Positions 43,280-60,412 of a DNA stretch of 64,000 nucleotides are shown in pieces. A model generated the notes under the pieces. That model made no database searches. It was not told the origin of the DNA and worked only from the letters and a program-made list of their open reading frames with translations. This stretch comes from an uncultured Eubacteriales bacterium. Its GTDB lineage: Bacteria; Acidobacteriota; Aminicenantia; Aminicenantales; Aminicenantaceae. Position 1 is the first letter of the stretch. Every line of letters begins with the position of its first letter. Where the stretch lies: positions 4,720 to 68,719 of the forward strand of contig CAZSZS010000107.1 of NCBI GenBank assembly GCA_964611275.1, written 5' to 3'. The position numbers and the translations under genes are program-made.

Positions 43280-46200
43280 TCATGAGAAAAGTTTCATTTG
43301 GGAAGCTTTTTTTTGAAAAGTTCTGGGAGAGGCCTTTTTTATGAGTTTTTCCTCAATGGCATCAAGAAAGCGGCTTCTCCTCGGTTCTCTATGTTTACCC
43401 TGGATAAATCTTTTTTTGGCGTAGGTCAGGTACAGATATTTTTCAGCTCTGGTCATGCCCACATAGAGAAGCCGTCTTTCCTCCTCCAAGTCAGATGTGT
43501 GACCGGGGAACAGGGAGTATGGGAGGATGCCTTCTTCACAGCCTGTAATAAAAACACACGGGAACTCGAGGCCTTTGGCTGCGTGAAGTGTCATCAGAGT
43601 AACGCATTCCAGGGAAGAGTCATAGGTATCAGCACCTGAGCCCAGGAATATGTGTTTCATAAATTCTTCTGTGTTTTCGTCGAATTTATTCACCATATCA
43701 ATAAGCCTTTTAAAGGAGTCCTCTGATTCTTCTTTCTGCCGGATGAAAAAACGGTCTATAATGGCATTAAGGCTCTTGGTTGTGGGCATGTTTTTTGTTA
43801 TTTCATAAAGGCTGGAGACATCCTCGGTCTTTATGACTTTTCTTTTTGTCAAACTCTGTTTGAGAAAAACGCTCTCTTTATTAAGGCTGAGTCTCAATAT
43901 ATCGATCGCAGATCTTATAGGCTCCTCCCTGAAAAAAGGGATTTCTCCGATCTTTTGGAAAGGAATGCTGTGGTCGTTTAGGGCTTTTTCAATAGCCTTC
44001 ATTTGTTCTTTGATCCGGCACAGCACAGCAAAATCAGAAAGGCTGTTTATGTCTTCTTTTTCCTCGCCTTCACTGATATCGGAGTCCATGGAGAAAAATC
44101 TCAATCCGCCTATGGTGTCTTCGATTGTTCTGGCGACGAATTCAGCTTCACTCTTATCTGTGGTGTTTTCAGCCAGATTGATCTTCACTCCCCTGTGCAG
44201 TCCTTTGAGCAGATCTTCCTCAGATGCCGCTTTATTTATCATTTTTCCCGAAGCTTTAAGGATTAAGTCAGAGCACCTGTAGCTTTTCTTGAGTTTATAT
44301 AGGGAAGCCCCGGGATGATCTTTGAGGAAGTCGCTCATAAAACGAACATCAGCGCCCCTGAACCCATATATGGCCTGGTCAGGGTCTCCAATGGTATACA
44401 GGGAGGCATCCTGTCCCGGCATCAGTCTTTTTATCATCCGGTACTGGGCAAGATTGACATCCTGGAACTCGTCCACCAGTAAATGGGCATATCTGTTTTT
44501 ATAATCGTTCCATACAGACGGGACCTGTGAAAAAAGAATCAGGGGTTTATACAGGCAGTCATCCAGGTCGAAGAGGTCTGATTTTTTTAGCGTGTCTTCA
44601 TATGATTCAAATAGAGAAAAGAGGTTGGCATCTTTTATTTCCCCCGGTAATTTGAGGTTCTGTTTGATATTTTTTATGGATTTGGCAGTGGCTGTGGCGT
44701 CTTTACGTTTGAGACCGAATAAATCTCGGATCAGGATGTTTCTTTCTTCATCGTCAAGGATTGAAAACTTTTTACTTCTGCCCAGGTATTCAGGGTGTTT
44801 TTTGAGGATCCCATAGCCAAATGCATGAAAGGTGGATATGCTGAGTCCGGACAGGTCTGTTTCGTTGGGGAGCCACTCCTTCAATCTCTTTTGCATTTCC
44901 TGGGCAGCCTTGTTCGTAAACGTAACGGCAAGGATTTTTTCAAGGGGGACTCCTTTTTCCTGGATAAGATACGCTATTCTGCAGCACAGAGTATGGGTTT
45001 TTCCTGTTCCGGGCCCTGCAATGACCGCAGCCGGGCCTTTATCATGCAGGACAGCCTGTTTTTGCTCTCTGTTAAGCTTTTCCAGGGCAGCCAATTTTCC
45101 GTATTTTTCAGATCTGTCTTCCGCGATCTCCAGCTTTCTTTGAGACGGAGCCAGGGGCATTTTTGCCTGAAGCATTCTGTACTCATTGAGGTCAAAATTA
45201 ATGATTTTTCTTTTGGGTATGGCTGAGGGAGCCTCTGGTTTTTTATCAAACAGAAAGACCTGGCTCTCCGGTGATTGGAGTTCCTCCTTATTGAATACCT
45301 TTATTTTGCCGTACTCGCCGTCAAAGCCTTCCTGAATCAGAACCTGTCTGGAGCGCATCCTTTTTATGGCCTCGGCTAGTATTTCGTATCCTTCCTTTTT
45401 AAGTTCTTCTATCGGCAAATCAAGGAGAATACTTAATTCAGGCCCGTTTCTATTGATCAGAGAAAAGTATGCGGAATCGACTTTTTTGGAAGCGGTTCCG
45501 ACCCGTATGATCTCAGAGAGGATTTCTTTCAGGGGAATGATGGAATAGAAGGGCCGTTTATTCGGGCGCTCGTCAAGGTCTTCCCTGTCAGAAAGTTCGA
45601 CCACCCTGTTCATGACACCCACGGTGACTTTTTTCCCGCATTCGGGGCATACCCCCTTGTTCTGTAACGTCTGAACAGGGTTCCATCGTATACCGCATTT
45701 TCTATGGCCGTCGTAGTGATATTTTCCTTCCTGGGGGAAGAGGTCAATGGTGCCTAGAAATTTTTGAGGGTCTCCTGATTTCATGGCTTTGATGATATCT
45801 GTGTAAGACAAGTTCGTGTCAAGGATGTTGGCATTGCGGCCCAGTTTTTCGGGGGAATGAGCATCTGAATTTGAAACCAGTGTGTATTTATCCAAAAATG
45901 AGCACATCCAGTGCATGGGAGCGTCCGTGGAAAGACCGGTTTCAACAGCGGATATATGCGGTGTCAGGTCTTCAAAACACTCCTCAATGGAATCAAAGCC
46001 TGATTTTGACCCGAGCACAGAAAACCAGGGAGTCCATATATGGGCTGGAATAAAATACGTTCTATCCGAAGCTTCCAGAGTCATATCCAGGAGATCTCTG
46101 GAGTCAAGGCCTAAAATGGGTCTTCCGTCGGATGTGATGTTTCCGCCGATCCGCAGCAGGGAATTTTGTATTTTCTCAGCGGTCTGGAAATCAGGGGCCA

Positions 46201-46534
46201 GAATAACGTTATGTACCTTTCTGACTCTGCCGTTTTTTTTATATATGCTGCTTATTTCCGCTGAGAGCAAGAATCTGATTTCCGGACAGAGGTCAACGGC
46301 TTCGGGGATATTCAGCTCTTTTTGATACTCTTTTTTGAGCTTAAACAGGCCTTCTTCTGAAGGGGCCAGTTTTTCCTTGAGCTCTTTCAGCCATCCGGGA
46401 TGAGAAAAGTCTCCGGTACCTACCACGGAGATACCTTTCACCCCTGCCCAATAATGGATAAATTCAGGGGCAAGTTTCTTGCTGGTCGCCCGTGAGAAGT
46501 GGGAATGGATATGGAGGTCAGCAATAAACCGCAT
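43280..46534 (-). CDS. fusion protein: N-terminal PHP-domain (COG1379-type, with Zn ribbon) + C-terminal UvrD/PcrA superfamily-1 helicase
   Basis: PHP motifs (DLHIHSHFS, DAHSPE) and a CPECGKK zinc ribbon in the first ~400 aa. UvrD motifs I (AGPGTGKTHT), II (DEFQD) and VI (HAAKGLEF) in the C-terminal ~650 aa. Confidence 0.75.
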   Translation of the reverse strand: MRFIADLHIHSHFSRATSKKLAPEFIHYWAGVKGISVVGTGDFSHPGWLKELKEKLAPSEEGLFKLKKEYQKELNIPEAVDLCPEIRFLLSAEISSIYKKNGRVRKVHNVILAPDFQTAEKIQNSLLRIGGNITSDGRPILGLDSRDLLDMTLEASDRTYFIPAHIWTPWFSVLGSKSGFDSIEECFEDLTPHISAVETGLSTDAPMHWMCSFLDKYTLVSNSDAHSPEKLGRNANILDTNLSYTDIIKAMKSGDPQKFLGTIDLFPQEGKYHYDGHRKCGIRWNPVQTLQNKGVCPECGKKVTVGVMNRVVELSDREDLDERPNKRPFYSIIPLKEILSEIIRVGTASKKVDSAYFSLINRNGPELSILLDLPIEELKKEGYEILAEAIKRMRSRQVLIQEGFDGEYGKIKVFNKEELQSPESQVFLFDKKPEAPSAIPKRKIINFDLNEYRMLQAKMPLAPSQRKLEIAEDRSEKYGKLAALEKLNREQKQAVLHDKGPAAVIAGPGTGKTHTLCCRIAYLIQEKGVPLEKILAVTFTNKAAQEMQKRLKEWLPNETDLSGLSISTFHAFGYGILKKHPEYLGRSKKFSILDDEERNILIRDLFGLKRKDATATAKSIKNIKQNLKLPGEIKDANLFSLFESYEDTLKKSDLFDLDDCLYKPLILFSQVPSVWNDYKNRYAHLLVDEFQDVNLAQYRMIKRLMPGQDASLYTIGDPDQAIYGFRGADVRFMSDFLKDHPGASLYKLKKSYRCSDLILKASGKMINKAASEEDLLKGLHRGVKINLAENTTDKSEAEFVARTIEDTIGGLRFFSMDSDISEGEEKEDINSLSDFAVLCRIKEQMKAIEKALNDHSIPFQKIGEIPFFREEPIRSAIDILRLSLNKESVFLKQSLTKRKVIKTEDVSSLYEITKNMPTTKSLNAIIDRFFIRQKEESEDSFKRLIDMVNKFDENTEEFMKHIFLGSGADTYDSSLECVTLMTLHAAKGLEFPCVFITGCEEGILPYSLFPGHTSDLEEERRLLYVGMTRAEKYLYLTYAKKRFIQGKHREPRRSRFLDAIEEKLIKKASPRTFQKKASQMKLFS

Positions 46535-46604
46535 CTTGTTTCTATTTTAAACAAAAAACGGGGATGGTTCTATTTTTTTATTTGCTGCCCCATATTGTTT
46601 TAAG

Positions 46605-46650
46605 GAAAAATAAAAAGGCACTCCCCCATTTAAGGAGAGTGCCATTTTTT
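46605..46650. terminator. rho-independent terminator (GGCACTC…GAGTGCC + T-tract), usable on both strands
   Basis: Hairpin at 46617..46642 flanked by A- and T-runs. Lies downstream of cspA. Confidence 0.6.
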
Positions 46651-46673
46651 GTCTTGCGTATAGCGTAATCGAG

Positions 46674-46874
46674 TTAAACGACAGTCACATTTTTTGCCGC
46701 AGGTCCTTTGGGACCCTGCTCGATCTCAAAGGTAACTTTATCGCCTTCTTTGAGAGATTTGAAACCAGATGCGTTGATCGCTGAATGATGGACAAACACA
46801 TCCGGCCCGTCTTCCTGCTCAATGAAGCCGTAACCTTTGCTGCTATTGAACCACTTTACAGTTCCATTAGCCAT
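46674..46874 (-). CDS. cold-shock protein CspA family
   Basis: RNP1/RNP2 motifs (KGYGFI, VFVHH). AAGGAG ribosome-binding site. Confidence 0.9.
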
Positions 46875-47189
46875 TGTGGCATTCTCCTTTCCTAAGATAC
46901 TCAAGGTTTCAAACTGGGGGATGCCACTTAAAAAAATGGTACTCTCCTGCAGAACGAAACCGGCTTGCTCCTAAGAACAAACCTTTACTGATTTGACATA
47001 TTCTATCATATTTTTAAAAAAAAATACAGATATAGGGAAAAAACAAAAATATTTTTATATATTTTTCTTAAAAATCACATAAGTTCAGGTTTGAATCAGA
47101 TGCCAAAGAGAATGTGATCAAAATAGTCGGACTCCATATCCACGGGAACCAGGATGAGTCCTTACGTGATGGATAAGAGGGTCCCTGAT

Positions 47190-47537
47190 CTATTCGATTT
47201 CAAGTTCCATTTTTTCCAGATATAAATCAGTTCCGTCAAGTGTCTCCAGGTTAATGGAACCACATGAGCTGCAGTTAAGGACCAGGTCGTCTTTAATGGT
47301 CAATGCGCCGCAGTCCTTGCATTTCAGTTTAAGAGGGACTTTTTCGATTTCCAGCTCAGCCTCTGAAGCCAGGGTTTCTTTTTTGTAGATACCAAAGGCT
47401 GTCTCCAGCAGTTCCGGGACAGCTCCGGAAAGCACTCCGACTCGAAGCTTGACATAGGTGATTTTTTTGGAATTTTTTTCCTTTGCCTTCTGCTCCATGA
47501 TTTCAAACAGATTGGCGATTAGAGAAAGTTCATGCAT
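47190..47537 (-). CDS. hypA: hydrogenase Ni-insertion metallochaperone HypA
   Basis: MHE N-terminus (Ni site) and a CxxC…CxxC zinc site. Confidence 0.85.
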   Translation of the reverse strand: MHELSLIANLFEIMEQKAKEKNSKKITYVKLRVGVLSGAVPELLETAFGIYKKETLASEAELEIEKVPLKLKCKDCGALTIKDDLVLNCSSCGSINLETLDGTDLYLEKMELEIE

Positions 47538-48201
47538 TTGCCCGGCGCAGTTTTTTTAGGTTTTTTACGAGATAATCTACGAACTCTTTGATACCGGTTC
47601 CCTCAACAGAACTGATCTTGAATACTTCCAATTTCGGATTGACATCCAGGCTTTCCTGAACGGCCCGGTCTACGTTAAAGGGCATTTTATCTAAAAGGTC
47701 GGTTTTGCTGATGATAAGGGCGTCTGAAGTAAAAAACGCTTTGGGGTACTTTTTGGGTTTATCGTCTCCTTCCGGGACAGAAAGAAGCACACACCGAAGG
47801 CTTTCCCCCAGATCAAAGCTGGCAGGGCATACCAGGTTACCGACATTTTCTATAAACAGAAGATCCAGGTCAGCAGGGATTTCTGAGAATACTTTACCGA
47901 CCATTTTTGCATCCAGATGACAGGCGCCTCCGGTAGATATCTGCCATGCTTGAATCCCTTTTGCTCTTATTCTCTCTGCATCCCTTTCGGTTTCAATGTC
48001 CCCTTCTATCACTGCCATTTTATAACCGGGGGTGAGGACTTCTGAGAGATTTTCAAGCAGGGATGTTTTGCCTGCTCCGGGAGAGCTGAGGAGATTGATG
48101 GCAAGAATTCCCTTTTCAGATAATTTTCTCCTGATATCTCCGGCTATTTTCTTGTTTGAACCAAGCAGGTCTTCCAAAACCATGACTTCTTGTTTTTTCA
48201 T
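47530..48201 (-). CDS. hypB: hydrogenase Ni-incorporation GTPase HypB
   Basis: P-loop (SSPGAGKTSL), CH motif, and SIMIBI GTPase fold. Confidence 0.85.
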   Translation of the reverse strand: MKKQEVMVLEDLLGSNKKIAGDIRRKLSEKGILAINLLSSPGAGKTSLLENLSEVLTPGYKMAVIEGDIETERDAERIRAKGIQAWQISTGGACHLDAKMVGKVFSEIPADLDLLFIENVGNLVCPASFDLGESLRCVLLSVPEGDDKPKKYPKAFFTSDALIISKTDLLDKMPFNVDRAVQESLDVNPKLEVFKISSVEGTGIKEFVDYLVKNLKKLRRANA

Positions 48202-48374
48202 TTTGAAATATCTTTCAATAAGGATTTTAATTTTTTTATAACCACTGGTATCTTCTTTTTCATTTCCTCGGTCAATTTTTCTCCGAGATTGTACATGTTT
48301 TTTGCTTCTATGGCTATTATTTTTATACTTTTAGGGGCTTTCAGGCCTTTTTCAAAAATGGCAACTGAATGGAT

Positions 48375-49493
48375 TCAGCCTTTTGTCTCCTTGTGTTTGG
48401 GGAGAGACACAGAAAACGTGCTTCCTTTTCCCGGAGTGCTCGAGACATCAATAGTGCCCGAATGAGCATCTATTATTTTTTTTGATATGGAAAGTCCCAA
48501 TCCTGAGCCTTTCCCTTGCTTGCTTACGTTCCGGTTGACCCGAAAAAACTGATTGAAGAGCTGGGGAATATGTTTTTCTTCTATTCCCACACCGGTGTCT
48601 TTGATGTCAGTGATGATATACCCATCCTTTTCCCTGAACGATATTTTTACCGAACCGTTTGGTTTGTTGTATTTGACCGCATTGTTCATCAGGTTTGCGA
48701 ACGCCTGTTCCAGAGTTTCCTCGTCTCCCCTGACCGTGCTCTTTCCTGTGGGAGGTTCGATCTCAAGATTTATTTTATTCTTTTCTGCAACAGGCTGCAG
48801 AAATTCGATCTGTTTTTTTAAAAGAGCGAAAAGGGAGACCTGTTTGAATTTTTCCACAAGCTGCCCCTTATCGATCCGGGCCGCATCAAGCCAGTCATTG
48901 ATAAGTTCCAGCAGGCTTTCGACTCTGTTTCTGGCTTTGGATAACATGTCTTTATGCTCTTTTGACATCTCTCCCACAGAACCTGAGAGCATGACCTCAA
49001 AGTACTGGGCAATGGCAACCAGGGGGCTTCTGAGCTGATGGGATACCATTGTGATGAAGTTTTCTTCTATGCGCTTTTTTTCTTTCCTGAGCGATTCAGC
49101 TTCCCTGGACAGCTTTATTTTTTCCAGGCCTCTTTTTATGATGACCCTGAGTTGTTCGGGGGTAAAAGGTTTGGGAAGAAAGTCATATGCGCCTTTTTTC
49201 ATGGCCTCTACGGCTGACTCGACTGTTGCGTAACCTGTAATGACGATCGGAACGGTATCCGGGGATATTTCTCTTATTTTTTCAATCACATCCAAGCCGC
49301 CGATGCCGGGCATTTTTAAGTCAACCAGCGCAATGTCCGGTTTCATTTCTTCTACTTTTTCAAGACCTTTTTTTCCGTCTTCTGCTGTTTCGGTGAGGAA
49401 ACCGTCTTTTTCAAGTATCATACGGCAGGAATCACGCATTGATTCTTCATCGTCTATAACTACGGTAGAATGATTTTTTTTCTGCATGAACAC
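48375..49493 (-). CDS. hybrid response-regulator/histidine kinase (REC-HisKA-HATPase_c)
   Basis: N-terminal receiver domain (Asp in VDLKMPG), H-box (HQLRSPL), and N/G boxes. Confidence 0.8.
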   Translation of the reverse strand: MFMQKKNHSTVVIDDEESMRDSCRMILEKDGFLTETAEDGKKGLEKVEEMKPDIALVDLKMPGIGGLDVIEKIREISPDTVPIVITGYATVESAVEAMKKGAYDFLPKPFTPEQLRVIIKRGLEKIKLSREAESLRKEKKRIEENFITMVSHQLRSPLVAIAQYFEVMLSGSVGEMSKEHKDMLSKARNRVESLLELINDWLDAARIDKGQLVEKFKQVSLFALLKKQIEFLQPVAEKNKINLEIEPPTGKSTVRGDEETLEQAFANLMNNAVKYNKPNGSVKISFREKDGYIITDIKDTGVGIEEKHIPQLFNQFFRVNRNVSKQGKGSGLGLSISKKIIDAHSGTIDVSSTPGKGSTFSVSLPKHKETKG

Positions 49494-49567
49494 TTCCTTA
49501 TCTGGATTAATATTAGTTTATACGAGATTGAGTCCTGTTGTCCAGAGCAATGTTTTTCTAGATACAA

Positions 49568-52500
49568 TCAGGCCCGAAAAATACCTTCTATCTCAGCAAT
49601 GATTTGTGTGTCAGAGAAATGCTTGGCTGTAGAGGCTGAGGACGGACATGCTGACACACAGGTCCCGCATCCTTTGCAGAGGGCTTCGTTCACAACAGAT
49701 ACGCTTCTTTCTTCATCAAAGCTTATGGCTCCGTAGGGACATAGATTGTTGCACAGCCTGCAGCCCGCGCAGAGCTCCGGATCGATTTCAGCTTGAATGG
49801 GTTCGAGTTCTATTTGACCTTTGGAGATATTGGATAATATTCTTGCTGCGGCTGAGCTTGCTTGAGCTACCGAATCTGGAATATCCTTGGGCCCCTGACA
49901 GCATCCGGCAATATAGACTCCGTCTGTCGCCGTACTTGTCGGATCAAGCTTGGGATGTTTTTCAAGAAAGAAGCCGTCAGGGCTTCGGCTTATGGAAAAG
50001 AGCCTTGCCGTTTTTTCCACATCACGCTGCGGTTCTATAGCGTTGCAGAGAATGACCATATCTACCGGTATTTCCCTGTATTTTTTTATCAGAGTATCTT
50101 CACATTTGATGATAAGCGGTTCTGTCCCGTTATCAGAATGCCCGGCTCTAATGACTTCTGATACTTTTCCCCTTATAACGTTTACATCTTCATCGAGTAT
50201 CCTTGAATAGAATTCTTCATATCCTTTTCCGAATGAACGCATATCAATATAGAACTGATAGACTTCCGCATTTGATCTGTCTTTTATTAGATGAGCGAAT
50301 TTAAGGGCGTACATGCAGCATACACGGGAGCAGTATGGATGAAAGTTGATATCTCTGGATCCAACACAATGTATGATACCTATGGCCCTGGGTTCTTTTC
50401 CTTCTTTGGTCACAATAGTGCCTTTAGTCGGCCCGGTGGAGCTCACGATCCTTTCAAACTCCAGGCTTGTGTACACATTATCGAACTCTCCGTATCCGTA
50501 AGGAGTGAGAGCTTTTGAATCAAGAGTGTCATACCCTGTAGTCAAAAGAATCTGGCCGACATTGATCTCTTCTATTTCATCTGCCATACCATGGTCAATG
50601 GCCTGGGCTTCACAAACGGTTTCACAAACATGGCACTCAACGCAGAGTCCGCAGTTCAGGCATCTCGAGGCTTCTTTTGTTGCTTCTTCTTCGGAATAGC
50701 CCAGTTCCACTTCTTCGAAAGTGTAACGCCGCTTTTCAGGATCAAGCGCTTTCATTTCGGTGCGGTCCTTTTTAGGCAGATTCTTGAAAGGAAGGGAATA
50801 CCTGTGGGGCCGATCGTTTTCGTCTCGTTCAGGAAGGGAGTTACACTTTCTTGTTTTAAAATCACTTAGGGGTTCACCCTTGATGAATTTATCAATCACT
50901 TCAGCGGCTCGTTTTCCGTCCCCCATGGCTGTTATAACGGCATCTGGACCGCGAGCCACGTCTCCTCCTGCGAAAACTCCTTTTATTTCAGTTTCCATGG
51001 TATCCGGGTTGATATCAATGGTATTCCATTTCGTAAGTTTGAGATGGGCTTCTTTTTCAGCGTAATTGATTTCAGGTGACTGGCTGACTGCAATAATGAT
51101 GGTATCAATTTTCAGATCATACTCGCTGCCTTTTATGGGTATGGGACGCCGCCTTCCGCTTGAGTCAGGTTCTCCGAGTTCCATTTTTATACATTTCATT
51201 CCCGTTACTTTTCCGGATTTCCCTAAAACTTCGACAGGAGCAGTCAGATACTTTATACGGACCCCTTCTGCCTCGGCAGCCTGGATTTCAGCTTCTTCAG
51301 CAGGCATTTCTTTTCGTGTTCTTCTGTAAAGTATGGTCACTTCATCGGCTTTAAGGCGCAGGGCGGTCCTGGCTGCGTCAATAGCTGTGTTTCCTCCTCC
51401 GATGATGGCCACATTTTTTCCAACCGGTTGAGGTTTTTGAAGGCTTATATTGCGGAGAAAATCAACTCCGTGATAAACTCCTTCGTATTCTTCTTCTCCG
51501 GGAATATCCATTTTTCTGCTGCTGTGGGCACCTGTGGCTATATACACAGCCTGGTACCCCATCTTTTTCAGGGCTTTGATGTCAAAGTCTTTACCCAGAG
51601 CTTTATTTGTCTTTATATCCACACCCAGTTTTTTGATGTATTCTATATCTCGCTTAAGGATTTTCTTTGGGAGCCTGTATTCCGGAATTCCTACCGTGAG
51701 CATACCGCCTTCAACAGGGAGCTTTTCAAAGATGGTGACATCGTATCCTTTTAAGGCCAGGTCATGGCCGCACACAAGGCCTGACGGGCCTGAACCGATG
51801 ATAGCAATTTTTTCTTCTCTTTTCTTCTTGATTTCTGGGGGGTCAGGTTCTCCTTTATTCTCAAATTCCCAATCAATGGCATATCTTTTAAGATTTTTTA
51901 TGGAAACCGCCTTGTCCACAAATTTACGGTTGCATTCTGATTCACACGGGTGGTAGCAGACACGACCGCAGACACTGGGAAGAGCATTTTGCTGCCTTAT
52001 GAGACGGGCTGCTTCCTCAAAGCGCCCCTTTGAGATAAGAGTCACATAGCCTGCGGCTTCCTGGTCGATGGGACAGGTTTCGCGGCACGGAGGCCTGCTG
52101 TCTTTATCAATGACATAGGTATTGGGGATTGCCTGGGGAAAGGTTTTATATATGGCAGAACGTAAAGACTGGTTCTCTTCAAAAGGATTGGGGATGCTGA
52201 TCGGACACGCCTCGGAACATTCTCCGCAGGATGTGCAGTCATCTTTGACGAAACGGGCTTTCTTCCGTACTTTGACCGTGAAATTTCCTATGGATCCCTC
52301 CACTTCTTCCACTTCACTCAAGCTTAGGAGCTTGATATTTTTGTTTTGGGCAACAGATACCATTTTCGGAGTAAGGATACAAGCGGAGCAGTCAAGAGTT
52401 GGGAATGTTTTGTCAAATTTAGCCATTTTACCGCCTATAGTGGATTCTTTTTCTACTAAATAGACGTTATTTCCTGATTCAGCTATCTCTATAGCGGCTT

Positions 52501-52972
52501 GTATTCCGGCAATGCCGGCTCCCACTATCAAAGTGTCTGGATTGACATTAACCTTTACCGGTTCGAGAGGCTGTTGAAGGGCCACTCTGTTTACGGCCGC
52601 TCTTATAAGGGAAGTGGCTTTTTTCGTGGCGCTTTCAATATCTTTATGAATCCAAGAACACTGCTCTCTTATATTGACCATCTGGAACAGATACCGGTTC
52701 ACACCTGCTTTTTCACAGGCCATCCTGAATGTGGGTTCGTGCATTAAAGGGGAGCAGGAAGCGACGATGATCCGGTTCAGCCCCATTTCTTTGATGTCCT
52801 TCATGATAAGGTCCTGTCCGGGTTCAGAACACATGAATTTGTAGTCACGGACAACTTGTACATTTGGCTCATTTTTTATGGCATCGCGCGATTTTTCCAC
52901 ATCTACGGTGGCTGCTATGTTAGATCCACAGTGACATATATAAACCCCTATTTTTATGTTGTTGTCAGTCAT
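49568..52972 (-). CDS. HdrA-like heterodisulfide reductase flavoprotein with inserted GltD-like NAD(P)H domain (HdrL-type), 1134 aa
   Basis: HdrA N-terminal Cys cluster (IGVYICHCGSNIA). FAD motif (GAGIAGIQAA). Inserted ferredoxin. GltD-like 4Fe-4S region with a second dinucleotide fold (IIGSGPSGLVCGHDLA, IIGGGNTAIDAA). HdrA-type CSRVCC motif. C-terminal 2x[4Fe-4S] ferredoxin. Confidence 0.8.
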   Translation of the reverse strand: MTDNNIKIGVYICHCGSNIAATVDVEKSRDAIKNEPNVQVVRDYKFMCSEPGQDLIMKDIKEMGLNRIIVASCSPLMHEPTFRMACEKAGVNRYLFQMVNIREQCSWIHKDIESATKKATSLIRAAVNRVALQQPLEPVKVNVNPDTLIVGAGIAGIQAAIEIAESGNNVYLVEKESTIGGKMAKFDKTFPTLDCSACILTPKMVSVAQNKNIKLLSLSEVEEVEGSIGNFTVKVRKKARFVKDDCTSCGECSEACPISIPNPFEENQSLRSAIYKTFPQAIPNTYVIDKDSRPPCRETCPIDQEAAGYVTLISKGRFEEAARLIRQQNALPSVCGRVCYHPCESECNRKFVDKAVSIKNLKRYAIDWEFENKGEPDPPEIKKKREEKIAIIGSGPSGLVCGHDLALKGYDVTIFEKLPVEGGMLTVGIPEYRLPKKILKRDIEYIKKLGVDIKTNKALGKDFDIKALKKMGYQAVYIATGAHSSRKMDIPGEEEYEGVYHGVDFLRNISLQKPQPVGKNVAIIGGGNTAIDAARTALRLKADEVTILYRRTRKEMPAEEAEIQAAEAEGVRIKYLTAPVEVLGKSGKVTGMKCIKMELGEPDSSGRRRPIPIKGSEYDLKIDTIIIAVSQSPEINYAEKEAHLKLTKWNTIDINPDTMETEIKGVFAGGDVARGPDAVITAMGDGKRAAEVIDKFIKGEPLSDFKTRKCNSLPERDENDRPHRYSLPFKNLPKKDRTEMKALDPEKRRYTFEEVELGYSEEEATKEASRCLNCGLCVECHVCETVCEAQAIDHGMADEIEEINVGQILLTTGYDTLDSKALTPYGYGEFDNVYTSLEFERIVSSTGPTKGTIVTKEGKEPRAIGIIHCVGSRDINFHPYCSRVCCMYALKFAHLIKDRSNAEVYQFYIDMRSFGKGYEEFYSRILDEDVNVIRGKVSEVIRAGHSDNGTEPLIIKCEDTLIKKYREIPVDMVILCNAIEPQRDVEKTARLFSISRSPDGFFLEKHPKLDPTSTATDGVYIAGCCQGPKDIPDSVAQASSAAARILSNISKGQIELEPIQAEIDPELCAGCRLCNNLCPYGAISFDEERSVSVVNEALCKGCGTCVSACPSSASTAKHFSDTQIIAEIEGIFRA

Positions 52973-53844
52973 CTTTGTACCTCTCTTGATATTTTTTCTG
53001 GTTCAAAAGGTATGAGTGAACGGTTGAGGCCCAGCTCGCGGGGAGAGCCACCCAGAGCGTGACCGACGATCTGTGTGAAAAAAAGTACGGGGATCTTAAA
53101 ATCCGTTTCAAATTTTTTATTTATTTTGTTTTGATAGGCTTCCAAGTTGATCTGGCAGAGGGGGCAGGTTGTGATAATTATATCCGCGCCGTTTTCTTTA
53201 GCGCACTCCAGAAGTTTTTTATTGAGGCCCAGACCCACATCAGGATAGGTCGTCATGAGCATCCCGCCGCAGCACTGAGTCTTCATTGGGAAGTAGACAT
53301 TTTTAGCTCCAAGGGCTTCACACAGATCGTCCATCATCTGTGGATTGTCTTGATCGTCCAGTCCCCTTTCAGGTCTCACTATCTGGCAGCCGTAGTATTG
53401 AGCGATCTTTAGGCCTTCCAGGGATTTTTTTGCTTTGGCGGCTATCGTCTCGATGCCCACATCGTTAACCAGGACTTCAAGAGGATGCCTGACCTCGACA
53501 CTTAGATTATACCCGAGTCCTACTTTTCTTAAAGCTTGATTGACTTTTTCCCTCAGGATGCGGTTGTTTTTCAGGATATGATTTGTCTTATAAAGGATCG
53601 TATAGCAGGAACTGCATGGTGCTATGATATCCAGTCCTTTTTTTTCAGCAATAGCCAGGTTTCTGGCAGATATGACAAGAGATATAGTCTCTTTTGTGGC
53701 CATGTAATACGTGGCCCCGCAGCAGTTCCAGTCATCTATTTCTATGAGTTCATGTCCTAACTCATTGAAGACATAGTGCACAGATTCATCATATCCTTTC
53801 GCTGATGCCTCTAGGCTGCATCCCGGATAATAAGAGTAATTCAT
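52969..53844 (-). CDS. HdrB-like subunit (two CCG domains)
   Basis: CCGATYYMA and CCGGMLMTT cysteine-rich (CCG) motifs. Confidence 0.85.
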   Translation of the reverse strand: MNYSYYPGCSLEASAKGYDESVHYVFNELGHELIEIDDWNCCGATYYMATKETISLVISARNLAIAEKKGLDIIAPCSSCYTILYKTNHILKNNRILREKVNQALRKVGLGYNLSVEVRHPLEVLVNDVGIETIAAKAKKSLEGLKIAQYYGCQIVRPERGLDDQDNPQMMDDLCEALGAKNVYFPMKTQCCGGMLMTTYPDVGLGLNKKLLECAKENGADIIITTCPLCQINLEAYQNKINKKFETDFKIPVLFFTQIVGHALGGSPRELGLNRSLIPFEPEKISREVQR

Positions 53845-53897
53845 TTTTTTGCCTCCGAAAACATAAAGGAAGAGGAATGAGAAAGGGATATGATTGC

Positions 53898-54521
53898 TTA
53901 TGATTCCTGCATGGGAATAATATTTTCTACTATCTCTGCTTCCTTAAGTATTTTGGAAAAATTTTTTTTGTGTTTTATTTTTCTGGGGAAAAACCCTATC
54001 CTGCCGTTTTTAGCTAATTTTAAAAACAGAGGGATCATTCCTAAAAGTTTAAATGGATTTGTTCTTAAATAGTAAGCAACTAAAAGACCTGGTTCATAAC
54101 TCAGACCTAAATGGTTTACAAGCCAGACAAAAGAATTGGACAGCGCATAAACAGGGAATTTTTTTGGAAAAATTTCGTTTTCTATAGCCAGCCTTTTCAG
54201 TGTGTAAATAATATCTGTGACTTTAACTCCCTGAGGACACCGGACAGTACAGGAGTAGCAGGAAGCACAGATCCAGATGGTTCTGCTCGAGAGTATGGTA
54301 TCGATATCTTTCGCTCTGAAAAGGGCAATGATTTCCCTTGGCGTTATATCCATGGTATAGCTGACAGGACATGTAGCTGTGCATGTGCCGCACTGGATGC
54401 ATTTTTTTATACTTTCTCCACCCGGGATATTTTGTACTTGGAGCAGGAAAGAATTTCTTAGTTCTTTTTCTTTTTCATTGAGTATGCCAGGTAATATCTG
54501 GCCTGCCTTCCCTTTGGTCAT
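53898..54521 (-). CDS. HdrC-like 2x[4Fe-4S] ferredoxin subunit
   Basis: CIQCGTCTATCP and CASCYSCTVRCP cluster motifs. Confidence 0.8.
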   Translation of the reverse strand: MTKGKAGQILPGILNEKEKELRNSFLLQVQNIPGGESIKKCIQCGTCTATCPVSYTMDITPREIIALFRAKDIDTILSSRTIWICASCYSCTVRCPQGVKVTDIIYTLKRLAIENEIFPKKFPVYALSNSFVWLVNHLGLSYEPGLLVAYYLRTNPFKLLGMIPLFLKLAKNGRIGFFPRKIKHKKNFSKILKEAEIVENIIPMQES

Positions 54522-54925
54522 TTTTTCAGAAGCCTCTCTATGCGTTCGATCAGGTCGTCAGCTTTGACAGGTTTATCTATATAGTCGTCCGGTCCTTCCA
54601 TTCCTTCTTTATCTCCTTTGAATTGGAATCTGGAGCCGGTTACTTCTTTGACTGCAGAAATAAAAATCACAGGTGTGTTTTGGGCGGACTTGAATTCTTT
54701 TGAGGTTTTTATGGCATGACACAATGAGAATCCGTCAAAAAGACTGTCCATCATAATATCCAGAAGAATAAGATCAGGTTTTTCAGATAGGATTTTTTTC
54801 TTTCCTTCTTCGGGATTAGAAGCTGTGATGGCATCATAAGATGCGGAATGAAGGATTGGAGTGATAGCATCTCTGAAATCGGGATCGTCATCGATGATTA
54901 AAATTTTTGCTTTTGCTTTTTCCAT
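54518..54925 (-). CDS. single-domain response regulator (CheY-like REC)
   Basis: DD…D…K receiver residues. No output domain. Confidence 0.8.
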   Translation of the reverse strand: MEKAKAKILIIDDDPDFRDAITPILHSASYDAITASNPEEGKKKILSEKPDLILLDIMMDSLFDGFSLCHAIKTSKEFKSAQNTPVIFISAVKEVTGSRFQFKGDKEGMEGPDDYIDKPVKADDLIERIERLLKK

Positions 54926-54937
54926 TTTATTTCTCCT

Positions 54938-55309
54938 TTATTTACTGAAAGCATTTTTAATTGCCAGTTTTAATTCTTCCTTTCCAAATGATTTTATAAA
55001 ATAATAAAAGATATCTTGTTCTCTTACTTTCGCCTCTAATTCTTTCGTATTTTTTTTGGTTGTCATTATGACTTTTGTATCCGAGTCTATATTTTTTATT
55101 ATGGAAACAGCTTCGTATCCTTTCATCTCTGGAAGTTCGACCGCCATTATAGCACAATGAAAATGATTGGATGTGATTTTTTTTATGGCATCTGTAAGCC
55201 CTTTTCCTGTTTCTACTTGATACTCTTTTTGTTGAAGAAAGGATAATAATGATTTTCTGTCTTTCTCATCAGGGTCAATTATGAGAATTTTTTTCTTAAG
55301 ATTTTTCAT
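54938..55309 (-). CDS. single-domain response regulator (CheY-like REC)
   Basis: Receiver-domain fold. No output domain. Confidence 0.8.
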   Translation of the reverse strand: MKNLKKKILIIDPDEKDRKSLLSFLQQKEYQVETGKGLTDAIKKITSNHFHCAIMAVELPEMKGYEAVSIIKNIDSDTKVIMTTKKNTKELEAKVREQDIFYYFIKSFGKEELKLAIKNAFSK

Positions 55310-55342
55310 TTATAATATCCTTGCATTGTACATTGAGTATAA

Positions 55343-55358
55343 CTGCAATAATTGTGCC
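55343..55358 (-). promoter_or_regulatory. sigma-54 promoter TGGCAC-AATTA-TTGCA (-24/-12)
   Basis: Minus-strand TTGGCACAATTATTGCAG has canonical GG-N10-GC spacing. Lies about 35 nt upstream of the first REC gene start (55309). Confidence 0.6.
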
Positions 55359-55475
55359 AAATCTAAATTTACTTTTCTGCATTTGTAAATATCTTTTAAG
55401 TCTTTAAAAACAAAAAAGTTAATACATTTTCAACTCAAAAAAAACAAAAAAACATTCTACATATATCCACCATAT

Positions 55476-55494
55476 GAGTGGAAATATTCCACAC
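55476..55494. promoter_or_regulatory. palindromic upstream activator site AGTGGAAATATTCCACAC
   Basis: 6-3-6 perfect inverted repeat (GTGGAA-ATA-TTCCAC) about 125 bp upstream of the sigma-54 promoter. The same motif recurs at 60354..60372. Confidence 0.45.
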
Positions 55495-55541
55495 AGTGTA
55501 TGAACATGCCCCAGACAGGAGAACATTCATCAGTTGTAAGT

Positions 55542-55569
55542 GAAGGGCTTGTCAGGAGACAAGCCCTTC
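55542..55569. terminator. strong hairpin GAAGGGCTTGTC-agga-GACAAGCCCTTC downstream of the hydrogenase large-subunit gene
   Basis: 12-bp perfect stem. No long U-tract. Confidence 0.45.
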
Positions 55570-55705
55570 GTATAAAATATTTATGAAAAAGAAAACCGTC
55601 CAGAGGTGATATAGATTGATACAGGAAAAAACAGGTGGGAAGTTATTTGTTGAGGAAACACTATCCTATGATGGCCACCTCTAAGGACGATTCTTCTCAT
55701 CGGTT

Positions 55706-57448
55706 TTAATTCTTCAAATGGTTTATGATTTCAAGGACAGCCTTTTGTACTGGGGGACTTAATTTATTTCCCGGGGCTACTGAATCCGGCTGTATCCCTA
55801 CTACATACGCATTTTTTTGCATGGACAGATTTTTAATGCTTGATATAAATGGTATGAATTTATGGCTCACACTGGATTGGCTGAGGATGTATTCCAAAGG
55901 AAGAACGGTTATCTTGCCTGCTTTTTCATTAAAATCAACCGCATCAAAGAAAACGAGAGGTTTCTTTTCGCTGGAGCTTTTCAGGCTGTCGTTTCTGATT
56001 ATTTCTGATTCAAGCCATACATCTTTAAATCCGAGACCGCATAGTTTTTTTGCTATATCAATACCGCAGCCGTCGTCACTGCGGTCTTCCTTTCCAGCCC
56101 CTATATAGATTGGTGTTCTGTCTTTCCTTATCTCTTCCAGTTTGTTTTTCCAGTTTCCGGAGGGAGCGTGTGTGACTTTAGCCAAATGGGCGGAGCAGCT
56201 GATACAGGGGTCAAAGGCCCTGACAACGATTTCCATTCTTTGTTTGATCTCATCTTCTTTTCCTGAATCAAGGAGATTTTGGGCAGCGATGTGGCAGTAC
56301 TTCTCGATATCTTCCGCATTCTGGGCCGTAGGGGTCACGATGTCCACATAGGAAATGCGTCCATCGCTGATTTCATGATGATGGATGAGAAGCCCTCTTG
56401 GGGCTTCCACCAGTCCTGTTCCTTTTCCGTTTTTTGCCGTGTATTTGACGGGCTTTGGGGTTTCTTCAAACTTGAGGATTTCATCCACCAGTTCTATGAT
56501 CCTTTCAAAACAGTAACTGATTTCCAGAGCCTGGGCGGCATTATGAAACAAGGGATTGACTTCCCAGCGTTTATTGAAATATTTTTTATACATTTTCCCT
56601 GTTTCACCCTTGAACCTTTTCCCTAAGTTGTTGACTCTGGCTAAGGCTCCTACAGAGTAAGGCTTTCCTTTGTAGCGGCTGCGCTTGCAAAAGGAATGAG
56701 AAACAACAAACTCGTTCGTGAGTTTTTGGTAATCGTCTCTAAAGAATTTTTCGCCTGTGGAAAGCATTATTTCGTCTCCCCAGAATCCATAGTTGTTATT
56801 CCCTGGTTCACAGCAGGCATAGATGGTTTCTTTTTCGGGGACTTCGGGATAATCAAGAGTGCAGAAGAGATCGACGGTCTTTTTAACAAAGGGCATGAAT
56901 TGGACTGCTCTGTTTTTTATAAAGACAAGTTCCTCTAGGGATGGGAATGCGCCGAAACCACCGATGATGGGATTTTCGCCGTGAATATAACGCCCGCTCA
57001 GGACTTTCATGACATGGTTGGCAAAATGCTTCATCTCCAGAGCGATTTTGACTTCAAGTTCGAAGTCCGATGCCATGGCTATGGCATTGGGATATCCCAA
57101 GTAATCAGGGAGAGCAAGGTAGTATGTGTGAAGAGAATGGCTTTCGATCATTTCTCCCATATGCATGAGTTCTCTGCAGAGATAGGATTTGGGATGTATT
57201 TTAATATTAAGTGCGTTTTCCATAGACCGGAGAACTGCGTTTTTATGTGAAAGAGTGCAGATGGCACATATCCGGGGAGACATACTGACATCTTCTTCAG
57301 GAGTTAGGCCGATGGTCAGCTTTTCTATGAGGCGGGGGCCTTCATATATACTGAATTTAACGTCTGATACAACTTTTCCGTCAATGGTGGCTGATATGCC
57401 ACCGTTTCCTTCAACTCTGGCTAGATGGTCTACACTTATCTTTTTCAT
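55706..57448 (-). CDS. [NiFe]-hydrogenase large (alpha) subunit, group 3, fused at its C-terminus to a hydrogenase maturation endopeptidase (HycI/HybD-like) domain
   Basis: N-terminal RICAICTLSH (RxCxxCxxxH) and C-terminal DPCISCSAH Ni-Fe site motifs. The additional ~150 aa after the His carry protease-family motifs (IYIGAGKEDRSDDGCGI, FFDAVDF, SxH). Confidence 0.85.
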   Translation of the reverse strand: MKKISVDHLARVEGNGGISATIDGKVVSDVKFSIYEGPRLIEKLTIGLTPEEDVSMSPRICAICTLSHKNAVLRSMENALNIKIHPKSYLCRELMHMGEMIESHSLHTYYLALPDYLGYPNAIAMASDFELEVKIALEMKHFANHVMKVLSGRYIHGENPIIGGFGAFPSLEELVFIKNRAVQFMPFVKKTVDLFCTLDYPEVPEKETIYACCEPGNNNYGFWGDEIMLSTGEKFFRDDYQKLTNEFVVSHSFCKRSRYKGKPYSVGALARVNNLGKRFKGETGKMYKKYFNKRWEVNPLFHNAAQALEISYCFERIIELVDEILKFEETPKPVKYTAKNGKGTGLVEAPRGLLIHHHEISDGRISYVDIVTPTAQNAEDIEKYCHIAAQNLLDSGKEDEIKQRMEIVVRAFDPCISCSAHLAKVTHAPSGNWKNKLEEIRKDRTPIYIGAGKEDRSDDGCGIDIAKKLCGLGFKDVWLESEIIRNDSLKSSSEKKPLVFFDAVDFNEKAGKITVLPLEYILSQSSVSHKFIPFISSIKNLSMQKNAYVVGIQPDSVAPGNKLSPPVQKAVLEIINHLKN

Positions 57449-58227: not shown

Positions 58228-58237
58228 TGTATCCCCC

Positions 58238-60156: not shown

Positions 60157-60225
60157 TTAAGGTGTCCTTTGATGTTCATAGAATTTTTTATAAAAAAGTA
60201 AGCATCACTCATCCGTTTGTCATTA

Positions 60226-60241
60226 TGCAAATTATGTGCCT
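60226..60241 (-). promoter_or_regulatory. sigma-54 promoter AGGCAC-ATAAT-TTGCA (-24/-12)
   Basis: Minus-strand GG-N10-GC with a TTGCA -12 box, about 70 nt upstream of the beta-subunit start. Confidence 0.55.
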
Positions 60242-60353
60242 ATTGAATGGCAAAATGGCCATTTTTTGATAAAGATCTAAATCATTGAATTAAAAGGAAG
60301 TAGGCGGTTTTGTTTCGATAAGTGGAAAATCGCTTGAATAAAAAAACGAAATT

Positions 60354-60372: not shown

Positions 60373-60412
60373 TAGGTGTTTAGATATGACATAGGTAGAT
60401 GCGGGGTTTTGA

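Follow-up and report, generated by a model that had tools for sequence, protein, structure and literature searches.

An HdrL-type protein with a predicted NADPH module inserted into HdrA, encoded beside a group 3b hydrogenase in an Aminicenantes locus with sigma54-type promoters

We analysed a 64,000-nucleotide stretch of DNA from an uncultured member of the Aminicenantaceae (assembly GCA_964611275.1, contig CAZSZS010000107.1, positions 4,720 to 68,719; hereafter the window), with a focus on hdrL, a minus-strand gene embedded in a cluster of hydrogenase, Hdr and signalling genes. Read along the coding strand, the order of this cluster is a sensor histidine kinase (HK), an NtrC-type activator, hydB-hydG-hydD-hydA, two response regulators (RR1 and RR2), hdrC, hdrB, hdrL, a response-regulator/histidine-kinase hybrid (RR/HK), hypB and hypA. 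An original prediction, made from the sequence alone, had described a 1134-aa HdrA/HdrL-type flavoprotein with a GltD-like insert and had placed the HdrBC genes downstream of it; hdrC and hdrB in fact lie upstream of hdrL on the coding strand. The open reading frame itself is intact, beginning at an ATG and running for 1134 aa with zero internal stops, and every motif quoted in that prediction was found in the protein (CHCGSNIA at residues 12-19, IIGSGPSGL at 390-398, IIGGGNTAIDAA at 522-533 and CSRVCC at 880-885). The gene and its parts are as follows.

49568-52972, minus strand: hdrL, encoding a 1134-aa HdrA with an inserted GltD/NfnB-like predicted NADPH module (open reading frame, Pfam and NCBIfam matches, Protein Data Bank (PDB) alignments and full-length orthologues)
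52100-52972, minus strand: HdrL residues 1-291, comprising the HdrA N-terminal iron-sulfur (Fe-S) domain, the first half of the flavin adenine dinucleotide (FAD) domain and the first Cys motif of the inserted ferredoxin domain (aligned with 5odc_A 5-291)
50648-52099, minus strand: HdrL residues 292-775, the GltD/NfnB-like module with two [4Fe-4S] clusters and FAD and NADPH sites predicted, circularly permuted relative to NfnB (phmmer against the PDB)
49568-50647, minus strand: HdrL residues 776-1134, comprising the second Cys motif of the inserted ferredoxin domain, the second half of the FAD domain, the C-terminal ferredoxin domain and the stop codon (aligned with 5odc_A 293-651)

Other datasets contain a 100% identical HdrL protein (P0001), and HdrL-like proteins of 1130-1147 aa in more than 100 clusters match the window protein at 59-87% identity across 99-100% of its length, the named ones belonging to Aminicenantes, Ignavibacteria, Calditrichia, Latescibacteria and the cultured Rosettibacter firmus. 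The search returned 8000 scored matches, among which Desulfobacterota, Chloroflexota, Ignavibacteriota, Acidobacteriota and archaea are represented, and a scan with one genome per species confirmed 594 genomic relatives. Because the identical protein and so many full-length orthologues occur elsewhere, the fusion is a genuine conserved gene and no product of mis-assembly, which speaks against the split gene that the original prediction had named as a way in which it could fail. Pfam matches locate Fer4_20 (1.5e-23) and Pyr_redox_2 (5.5e-48; 388-686) in the middle of the protein, together with a FAD-type Rossmann match at residue 146 and 4Fe-4S dicluster domains at residues 1061-1113; Pyr_redox_2, along with matches of the insert to NfnB and StnC, likewise speaks against the other such failing, a central region that is no pyridine-nucleotide module.

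Structures of HdrA (8rvu and 5odc) match HdrL at an E-value of about 1e-208 in exactly two pieces, with HdrL residues 5-291 aligning to HdrA 11-299 and residues 776-1131 to HdrA 300-652. The insert thus comprises 484 residues at a single point of HdrA, between 5odc_A residues 291 and 293, where it separates the two Cys motifs of HdrA's own inserted ferredoxin domain. What had earlier been taken for two HdrA-like FAD regions are really the two halves of one thioredoxin-reductase-like FAD domain with the insert between them, and CSRVCC, previously assigned to the flavin, is an Fe-S ligand motif. When aligned with 5odc_A, the ligands of the N-terminal cluster are C12, C14, C47 and C72; C194 and C197 also align, the latter being the ligand supplied in trans. 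The inserted ferredoxin domain retains its first motif (C245, C248, C251, C255) and its second (C776, C779, C782, C786), the FAD motif spans G150-G155, the cluster of the FAD domain is held by C868, C880, C884 and C885, and the motifs of the C-terminal ferredoxin domain run from C1067 to C1077 and from C1098 to C1108. K890 aligns with Lys409 of 5odc, which is hydrogen-bonded to flavin N5 (PMC6405883). All of these Cys ligands, C197, the FAD motif and K890 are invariant in a 16-sequence alignment that spans several phyla and includes five Aminicenantes sequences whose loci are without MvhD. Together with the matches of the insert given below, the two-piece alignment bears out the class that had been proposed, in that hdrL encodes a protein of the HdrL type, with a predicted NADPH module of the GltD/NfnB kind built into a complete HdrA. 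HdrL scores below the equivalog cutoffs for the methanogen proteins (794.7 bits against a cutoff of 1100 for NF040770, and 597.8 against 1400 for NF041778). An AlphaFold2 model built from the 16-sequence alignment had a mean predicted local distance difference test score of 70.9 and a predicted template modelling score of 0.52, with only the insert confident, and was not used.

In phmmer searches of the PDB, the insert was best matched by the GltD-like domains of Bfu-type NfnA (9bov_A, 445 bits; 9n5u_A, 412 bits) and StnC (8oh5_C, 352 bits); other matches were to Thermotoga maritima NfnB (4ylf_B, 370 bits, 1e-109) and Pyrococcus furiosus NfnL (5jca_L, 330 bits), followed by GltD and dihydropyrimidine dehydrogenase. 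All FAD, NADPH-site and two-[4Fe-4S] motifs of NfnB/NfnL align within it. The order of these elements is circularly permuted, with NfnB 46-462 aligning to HdrL 294-699 and NfnB 2-42, where the first cluster motif begins with EAxRCLxC, aligning to HdrL 733-773. This permuted order, a GltD core followed by EAxRCLxCG, is common to StnC and Bfu-type NfnA, and the insert is colinear with 9bov_A, 9n5u_A and 8oh5_C through residue 784. C770 and C773, which are of the GltD type and belong, with C295 and C346, to the distal cluster of the module, directly abut the HdrA ligands C776 to C786; because the insert is permuted, the distal cluster of the module and the clusters of HdrA's inserted domain share one Cys-rich segment. 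The original prediction spoke of a second dinucleotide-binding unit, and although the insert does carry the motifs for binding dinucleotides, HdrL has three such motifs in total, namely G150-G155 for the HdrA FAD, G392-G397 for the insert FAD and G524-A529 for the NADPH of the insert.

The type of module can be narrowed further from single residues. At the position of the Glu that serves NfnB as a ligand of the FAD-proximal cluster, HdrL lacks the Glu and has an invariant Lys361, which corresponds to StnC K170, and the conserved R432 corresponds to NfnB R201 and StnC R239. Y548-R549-R550 are conserved as well, and the YRR...EMPA segment and both Rossmann motifs are common to the insert and the NADPH enzymes NfnB, StnC and Bfu-type NfnA; because these segments are conserved with NADPH enzymes, we infer that the insert is specific for NADPH. 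The flavin of StnC has been shown not to bifurcate (PMC10482914), and the insert looks most like this non-bifurcating type. We therefore read it as a probable entry or exit module between NADPH and Fe-S clusters and not as a second bifurcation site. StnC (8oh5) and Bfu-type NfnA (9bov, 9n5u) have the same GltD-like domain as the insert, with Lys361/K170, R432/R239 and the NADPH site (PMC10482914, PMC11829005), but there the domain is part of a NuoG-like subunit and passes electrons to a HydBC-like module that bifurcates on FMN, whereas here it sits in HdrA; C334 of HdrL is retained as in NfnB, in contrast to StnC and Bfu-type NfnA. NfnAB (4ylf_B, 5jca_L) shares fold and cofactors with the insert and differs in that the insert is permuted, has Lys in place of Glu and appears to come without a dedicated NfnA. 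There is no nfnA gene at the locus, where the sole NfnA homologue is the gamma subunit of the hydrogenase.

The position of the module matters for any mechanism drawn from the sequence. Methanogen complexes of solved structure use the inserted ferredoxin domain as their low-potential exit, which leads to ferredoxin or polyferredoxin, and the donor enters via MvhD or VhuD (PMC9012536, PMC13518236). Because the insert splits this very domain, the predicted NADPH module sits on the ferredoxin arm. The direct NAD(P)H link to the bifurcating core that had been predicted thus stands as far as the presence of an NADPH module is concerned, and needs to be refined in that the module is StnC-like and specifically interrupts the inserted ferredoxin domain.

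The architecture of HdrL has been published before (HdrL in 2009, ANME-1 HdrA9-11 in 2022) and is widespread, and the protein as such is not new. In HdrL of Desulfobacterium autotrophicum HRM2 and in Sfum_0824 of Syntrophobacter fumaroxidans, both of them large proteins, HdrA is fused to a glutamate-synthase-like region for binding NAD(P)H (PMC2702500, PMC5947623), and the window protein fits the definition of HdrL given by Strittmatter et al. 2009 (PMC2702500), with HdrA and an NAD(P)H region in one polypeptide. Identity to the proteins of Desulfobacterales and Syntrophobacteraceae, which occur in an HdrL-MvhD-FeS-HdrABC context, is about 50% over residues 4-1133. These known hdrL genes, some of which contain selenocysteine, are followed by genes for MvhD and an FrhB/FdhB-like Fe-S protein and stand beside a second, normal hdrABC; the window locus has no MvhD, no second HdrA and no selenocysteine, and its neighbour is a group 3b hydrogenase. 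ANME-1 HdrA9/10/11, described as HdrA-NfnB fusions (Chadwick et al. 2022, PMC9012536), share the insertion site of the window protein, in which 484 aa lie between 5odc_A 291 and 293, but they are archaeal, belong to methane metabolism and are presumed to act on CoM-S-S-CoB, whereas the window protein is bacterial and hydrogenase-linked. From the methanogen complexes MvhADG-HdrABC and Vhu/Fdh-Hdr-Fwd (5odc, 8rvu, 7bkb; PMC13518236) the window shares the HdrA core with its ligands, HdrB and HdrC; unlike them, its locus is without MvhD and a group 3c hydrogenase, and the arm on the ferredoxin side bears the predicted NADPH module. CoM and CoB are not expected in the source organism. A 2024 preprint on the evolution of HdrA covers only proteins of 640-775 aa and is silent on the insert (10.1101/2024.09.26.615249). 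The permutation, the joined Cys-rich segment and Lys361 go beyond the published descriptions that we found.

The partners encoded immediately before hdrL are an HdrC-like and an HdrB-like protein, and the hydrogenase subunits precede these on the same strand.

52969-53844, minus strand: hdrB-like gene, 291 aa, whose stop codon overlaps the start of hdrL by 4 nt (Pfam CCG twice, 3.4e-28)
53898-54521, minus strand: hdrC-like gene, 207 aa, with a 4-nt overlap with the upstream RR2 gene (Fer4_8, Fer4_17)
55706-57448, minus strand: hydrogenase large subunit (alpha) fused to a HycI-type maturation protease, 580 aa (NiFeSe_Hases and HycI; sulfhyd_HydA 7.6e-111)
57445-58227, minus strand: hydrogenase small subunit (delta), 260 aa (Oxidored_q6; sulfhyd_ShyD 2.9e-61)
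58238-59098, minus strand: hydrogenase gamma subunit, PyrK/NfnA-like with FAD, NAD(P) and [2Fe-2S] sites, 286 aa (FAD_binding_6, NAD_binding_1, DHODB_Fe-S_bind)
59095-60156, minus strand: hydrogenase beta subunit, an AsrA-like Fe-S protein, 353 aa (Fer4_22; sulfhyd_ShyB 9e-88)

As predicted, HdrB has two CCG domains, and both of its Cys motifs are intact (C9/C41/C42/C77/C80 and C153/C190/C191/C226/C229); it scores 221 bits against TIGR03288, below the cutoff of 345. HdrC has two CxxCxxCxxxCP motifs and matches TIGR03290 at 3e-22, also below the cutoff. Overlaps of 4 nt join RR2 to hdrC, hdrB to hdrL, hydB to hydG and hydD to hydA, and because the genes overlap their neighbours, hdrC and hdrB are probably translationally coupled with them.

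The hydrogenase is assigned to group 3b on the basis of its subunit set, the hydBGDA order and its best structural matches. Residues 4-424 of alpha score 339 bits against 5yxy_A (Thermococcus kodakarensis Hyh) and 336 bits against 9nez_D (P. furiosus SHI), compared with 140 bits against Mvh alpha, and the subunit has the motifs RICAICTLSH (L1) and DPCISCSAH (L2). The gamma subunit, also a homologue of PyrK, scores 237 bits against the gamma subunit of SHI (9nez_C) and matches NfnA (4ylf_A) at 5e-13, and NADP(H) is the predicted coupling partner of the enzyme. The SHI enzymes of Pyrococcus and Thermococcus (9nez, 5yxy) have the same four subunits in the same beta-gamma-delta-alpha order; unlike SHI, the window alpha subunit carries a fused HycI-type protease, and its locus holds response regulators, hdrCBL and sigma54 control sites. 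The HycI-type domain (residues ~449-579) follows in frame right after DPCISCSAH, which is the normal cut site of that protease, and its Asp/Asp/His metal-ligand motifs appear intact. Among the best 120 clusters matching the fusion, all are 572-597 aa long, nearly all at least 579, at 64-91% identity, and every cluster with a name comes from Aminicenantes or Acidobacteriota. This arrangement suggests self-processing in cis; a single literature query returned no description of such a fusion. In three relative loci (L001, L002 and L004) a separate HycI-like gene precedes hypB, and the window is without such a gene at its locus.

Regulatory genes and the nickel-insertion genes complete the locus, together with two candidate promoters and one candidate terminator.

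47190-48201, minus strand: hypB (47530-48201) and hypA (47190-47537), hydrogenase nickel-insertion proteins (cobW/HypB, HypA; synteny conserved)
48375-49493, minus strand: hybrid response-regulator/histidine kinase, 372 aa, directly downstream of hdrL (Response_reg, HisKA, HATPase_c)
54518-54925, minus strand: single-domain response regulator RR2, 135 aa (Response_reg 2.9e-19; position kept in all Aminicenantes loci)
54938-55309, minus strand: single-domain response regulator RR1, 123 aa, which would open the second sigma54 unit (Response_reg 5e-19; synteny conserved)
60413-61774, minus strand: NtrC-type sigma54 activator with REC, AAA+ and HTH_8 domains, 453 aa (Sigma54_activat 1.8e-70)
61755-63740, minus strand: sensor histidine kinase with sCache_3, HAMP, HisKA and HATPase domains, 661 aa (Pfam; upstream partner conserved in related loci)
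55344-55359, minus strand: sigma54-type promoter TGGCACAATTATTGCA, with a perfect -24/-12 consensus, 35 nt before the ATG of RR1
60226-60241, minus strand: sigma54-like site AGGCACATAATTTGCA, with 1 mismatch, upstream of hydB
46617-46643, minus strand: terminator-like hairpin after hypA with an 11-bp stem, 7 G-C pairs and a T-run, the best in a scan of 46400-60600

The site TGGCACAATTATTGCA is the sole perfect sigma54 match in the window, and at least 11 related loci have a perfect site at the corresponding position (L001-L006, L051, L086, L102, L122 and L142). The site before hydB, which lies next to the NtrC-type activator gene, has a perfect counterpart in L001, and its AGGCAC...TTGCA form is kept in L122, L142, L102 and L103. 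Matches to the sigma54 consensus across the window are at chance level (23 found compared with 25 expected), and because of this only the position, strand and cross-locus conservation of the two sites carry weight. No strong terminator lies between RR1-hdrCBL and the hairpin past hypA in the scan of 46400-60600. Taken together, these elements point to two sigma54 units, hydBGDA and RR-RR-hdrCBL-RR/HK-hypBA, and on this division hypBA would sit in the Hdr unit. The hypBA genes serve the hydrogenase only, yet they lie after hdrL, which supports a link between Hdr and hydrogenase. The original prediction of an NAD(P)-type group 3 hydrogenase upstream of hdrL was right about a complete enzyme of this kind in a conserved locus; the hydrogenase nevertheless appears to belong to a separate sigma54 unit, and its association with hdrL is facultative, as the comparison below shows. 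Signalling genes are unusually dense here, with a Cache-type kinase, an NtrC-type activator, two stand-alone receivers and a receiver-kinase hybrid.

Synteny was assessed using tblastn with window proteins against the relative loci. The full order HK-NtrC-hydBGDA-RR-RR-hdrCBL-RR/HK-hypBA is kept in Aminicenantes loci with 75-88% HdrL identity (L001, L003-L006 and L051). Outside this group the usual neighbour of hdrL is different, since MvhD lies within 1.5 kb of hdrL in 34 of the 45 full-length loci with enough flank, and the slot that MvhD mostly fills at HdrL loci elsewhere is taken in the window by the RR/HK hybrid gene. In Melioribacteraceae, Bacteroidota, Vicinamibacteria, Saprospiraceae, some Dehalococcoidia, Actinomycetes and Sumerlaeia, mvhD is followed by mvhG and mvhA; the order hdrL-mvhDGA was confirmed by Pfam for L009 and holds in the cultured R. 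firmus too, and the outgroup loci L007-L010 and L160 encode MvhD and a group 3c hydrogenase with hdr. What follows MvhD in Desulfobacterota is an FrhB-like protein, a normal HdrA and HdrCB, and for S. fumaroxidans this MvhD/FrhB-like/HdrABC arrangement has been published (PMC5947623). In Chloroflexota and archaea, MvhD is followed by an FrhB-like protein and a beta/gamma-like pair, and such pairs occur without hydrogenase catalytic subunits by HdrL-MvhD-FrhB-like genes in L017, L028, L034, L044, L045, L060 and L067. A 3b hydrogenase adjoins HdrL in one Dehalococcoidales locus (L012). The Aminicenantes HdrL clade is nested in the hdrCB-hdrL-mvhDGA clade in a neighbour-joining tree constructed without bootstrap, which suggests that the Mvh hydrogenase is the ancestral partner and that an Fe-S-wired Mvh was replaced by the NADP-linked 3b hydrogenase.

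Several of these loci merit description in their own right. L160, from R. firmus (GCA_036860695.1, a cultured member of the Ignavibacteriota), encodes hypFCDE, a sigma54 activator, hycI, rubrerythrin, hdrC, hdrB, hdrL, mvhD, mvhG and mvhA; its HdrL is 63% identical to that of the window, and a sigma54-like site lies 39 nt before hycI. In the Dehalococcoidia loci L017 and L028, hdrC-hdrB-hdrL is followed by a gene for a fused MetF/MetV-like methylene-tetrahydrofolate reductase, with a beta/gamma-like pair, an FrhB-like gene and mvhD on the opposite strand, an arrangement that recalls the HdrABC-MvhD-MetFV complex of Moorella.

Within the Aminicenantes, a comparison anchored on the kinase gene showed that the same kinase-NtrC-3b-RR-RR-RR/HK-hyp locus also occurs without hdrCBL (L086, L103, L135, L101, L102, L104, L114 and L124). 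Where the three genes are present, RR2 and the RR/HK gene flank them, and the hdrCBL cassette is thus facultative in this lineage. No MvhD was found by tblastn anywhere in the window, nor any group 3c hydrogenase, and none was found in the loci of the closest relatives (L081, L119 and L122). We rejected the general statement that Aminicenantes lack MvhD, as sister lineages carry mvhDGA, and limit it to the window and these closest relatives: mvhD-mvhG-mvhA lies just upstream of the kinase gene in L142 (84% kinase identity), L090, L096, L101, L102, L104, L108 and L111. L125 and other distant loci have the same regulator types beside a classical hdrC-hdrB-hdrA-mvhDGA in which hdrA has no insert; a kinase and a hybrid of the window's types, together with a single stand-alone receiver, flank these genes.

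A tblastn match to the C-terminus of HdrL at the end of the window (63906-64000) was considered as a second HdrL paralogue and rejected, as the gene is a NuoG-like/HdrA chimera of 590 aa in close relatives. The last 95 nt of the window (63906-64000, minus strand) encode the C-terminus of this chimera. In L122 (1-9791) it has a NuoG-like N-terminus ([2Fe-2S] and 4Fe-4S), and its residues 236-588 are gaplessly 58% identical to HdrL 780-1132. It is preceded in relatives by genes for a HydS-like sensory [FeFe] protein, DRTGG, HATPase and PHP proteins, a NuoE-like gene and a 1024-aa NuoF::GltD fusion, making up a Bfu/Stn-like cluster in which a GltD module followed by the C-half of HdrA is divided over two genes. 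The mvhDGA genes of the sister lineages are inserted between the chimera and the kinase gene, a spot that in the window is a 165-nt gap, and the chimera cluster and mvhDGA could possibly make up a Bfu-type [NiFe] hydrogenase with an extra NADPH module.

We infer that HdrL, HdrB and HdrC would form a soluble dimeric complex, (HdrL-B-C)2, similar to HdrABC, dimerisation being suggested by the retained trans ligand C197. Such a complex would have three ports: NADP(H) at the insert, a disulfide/thiol pair at the two non-cubane clusters of HdrB and, at the C-terminal ferredoxin domain that HdrL has retained, a partner for one-electron transfer, most probably ferredoxin. The third port, and with it an enzyme of three substrates, is proposed because the C-terminal ferredoxin domain is invariant in Aminicenantes without MvhD at the locus. 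As NADP(H) has the middle potential among the three couples, the expected reaction in vivo would be an NADPH-driven co-reduction, 2 NADPH + Fd(ox) + R-S-S-R' -> 2 NADP+ + Fd(red) + 2 thiols, or a confurcation running the other way. On this view the NADPH pool, in place of MvhD, would couple H2 to the Hdr reaction. The logic of this explanation is that of FlxABCD-HdrABC of Desulfovibrio, a proposed NADH-dependent Hdr complex that reduces the disulfide of the DsrC protein and ferredoxin; the NADH module of that complex consists of separate Flx proteins joined via the MvhD-like FlxD and is not a domain inserted in HdrA. The use of NAD(P)H by HdrL and by the ANME-1 HdrA-NfnB fusions has been proposed earlier (PMC2702500, PMC9012536). 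We give about an even chance to the proposal that an HdrL-B-C complex links NADPH, a putative disulfide and a third partner, probably ferredoxin, with H2 reaching it via the NADPH pool; the soluble H2/NAD(P)H/disulfide bifurcation module of the original prediction is, in the same way, a reasonable hypothesis and not a result.

Several points weigh against this proposal. The scores of HdrB and HdrC fall below the NCBIfam cutoffs for the methanogen enzymes, and no gene for MvhD, a ferredoxin, DsrC/TusE or another candidate disulfide carrier or substrate was found in the window. Because many Aminicenantes carry the identical locus without hdrCBL, the hydrogenase does not depend on Hdr; moreover, MvhD-MvhGA is encoded at a distance of about 10 kb in sister lineages and could be encoded elsewhere in the source genome. 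The insert lies on the arm that is the low-potential exit in methanogens, and with NADPH as the donor the arms would be used differently (PMC9012536, PMC13518236). Lys361, as in the non-bifurcating StnC, fits plain NADPH entry and is silent on bifurcation at the HdrA flavin. Lastly, no biochemically characterised HdrL was found in the literature that we consulted, which agrees with the remark in the original prediction that the partners and substrates of HdrL are unresolved (PMC2702500, PMC5947623).

Some of these points favour an alternative that we regard as unlikely though deserving of serious weight, in which the complex is a linear NADPH:disulfide reductase without ferredoxin and acts as an H2- or NADPH-driven sink for disulfide or polysulfide. 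The reduction of a disulfide by NADPH is exergonic on its own, which counts for such a path. Electrons would pass from NADPH through the insert FAD and its two clusters to the inserted-ferredoxin and N-terminal clusters of HdrA, then to the HdrA FAD and through HdrC and HdrB to the disulfide, and in line with this the insert is wired in series with the cluster chain of HdrA, genes for MvhD and ferredoxin were not found at the locus, and the insert is of the StnC-like type (Lys361) that serves as a simple NADPH entry (PMC10482914). Against a linear path, the eight Cys of the C-terminal ferredoxin domain and K890 are invariant in Aminicenantes, which is unexpected if two clusters are off the pathway, and the characterised HdrA complexes cited in the literature we found all bifurcate.

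Less probable still is that NADP+ replaces ferredoxin as the acceptor of the low-potential arm, while a mid-potential donor encoded elsewhere in the genome docks at the MvhD site; NADPH and thiols would then be its products, formed at the expense of H2 or another donor, as is predicted for the hdrCB-hdrL-mvhDGA loci. This possibility draws on the placement of the insert inside the inserted ferredoxin domain, the low-potential exit (PMC9012536, PMC13518236), and on genomic context, with MvhD within 1.5 kb in the 34 of 45 full-length HdrL loci noted above, hdrCB-hdrL-mvhD-mvhG-mvhA in the nearest outgroups and R. firmus, and mvhDGA some 10 kb off in sister Aminicenantes. The last of these is, however, probably the partner of a different system, as the Aminicenantes mvhDGA follows the Bfu-like cluster that ends in the gene with the HdrA-like C-half. 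Furthermore, MvhD was not found in the window or in L081, L119 and L122, and the co-encoded 3b hydrogenase already would make NADPH from H2.

We are doubtful of a hard-wired supercomplex, in which gamma, as an NfnA-like subunit, would bind to the NfnB-like insert as NfnA does to NfnB, and the electrons of H2 would reach HdrL without free NADPH. It would amount to hydrogenase and HdrL-HdrBC being one machine that rebuilds the Nfn-type flavin pair and couples H2, NADP(H), disulfide and ferredoxin via two flavins in series with no MvhD, a notion to which we attach equally little confidence. The homology of gamma to NfnA (4ylf_A, 5e-13) and to SHI gamma is what one would expect of such a pair, as are the beta/gamma-like pairs beside HdrL-MvhD-FrhB-like genes in Chloroflexota and archaea and the 3b hydrogenase adjoining HdrL in L012. 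Against such contact, the hydrogenase locus is unchanged without hdrCBL in many relatives, hydrogenase and hdrCBL appear to form two separate transcription units, and an insert of the StnC type works without an NfnA partner (PMC10482914). Finally, that the adjacency is regulatory or historical only, hdrCBL having landed in a sigma54 operon while serving a pathway unrelated to H2, would fit a facultative cassette that may have travelled along with the Cache-type kinase, RR/HK hybrid and response regulator found also by classical hdrCBA-mvhDGA (L125 and others), but is very improbable given the HdrL-hydrogenase association in several independent phyla, the location of hypBA after hdrL in the same putative unit and the predicted use of NADP(H) by both HdrL and the 3b hydrogenase.

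Returning to the proposed three-substrate HdrL-B-C complex, its interest lies in the fact that anaerobes very often encode proteins of the HdrL type, for none of which a reaction has been demonstrated. The Aminicenantes locus is the most stripped-down HdrL context we have seen, with only HdrL, HdrB and HdrC beside an enzyme predicted to interconvert H2 and NADPH, and it yields a testable prediction, NADPH-dependent disulfide reduction with or without ferredoxin. Natural controls are at hand in the Aminicenantes without the cassette and in the cultured, tractable R. firmus with its Mvh-linked form. The position on the ferredoxin arm and the StnC type of the module bear on the recombination of two families of bifurcating enzymes, and on whether NADPH acts as donor or as low-potential acceptor. 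Nothing is overturned by these findings; what they provide is a minimal natural system for finding the role of HdrL. As far as the literature we found goes, it is the context that is new, namely a 3b hydrogenase whose sigma54-type accessory operon contains the cassette but no MvhD; no description of an Aminicenantes Hdr/sulfhydrogenase/3b operon was found in what is a limited collection of literature and no proof of novelty.

Beyond the hairpin past hypA, the window encodes a UvrD/Rep-type helicase of 1084 aa (43280-46534, minus strand), whose N-terminal ~485 residues are without a Pfam match at the threshold used and whose helicase domains begin at about residue 486. The remainder of the window holds envelope, efflux and DNA-housekeeping genes.

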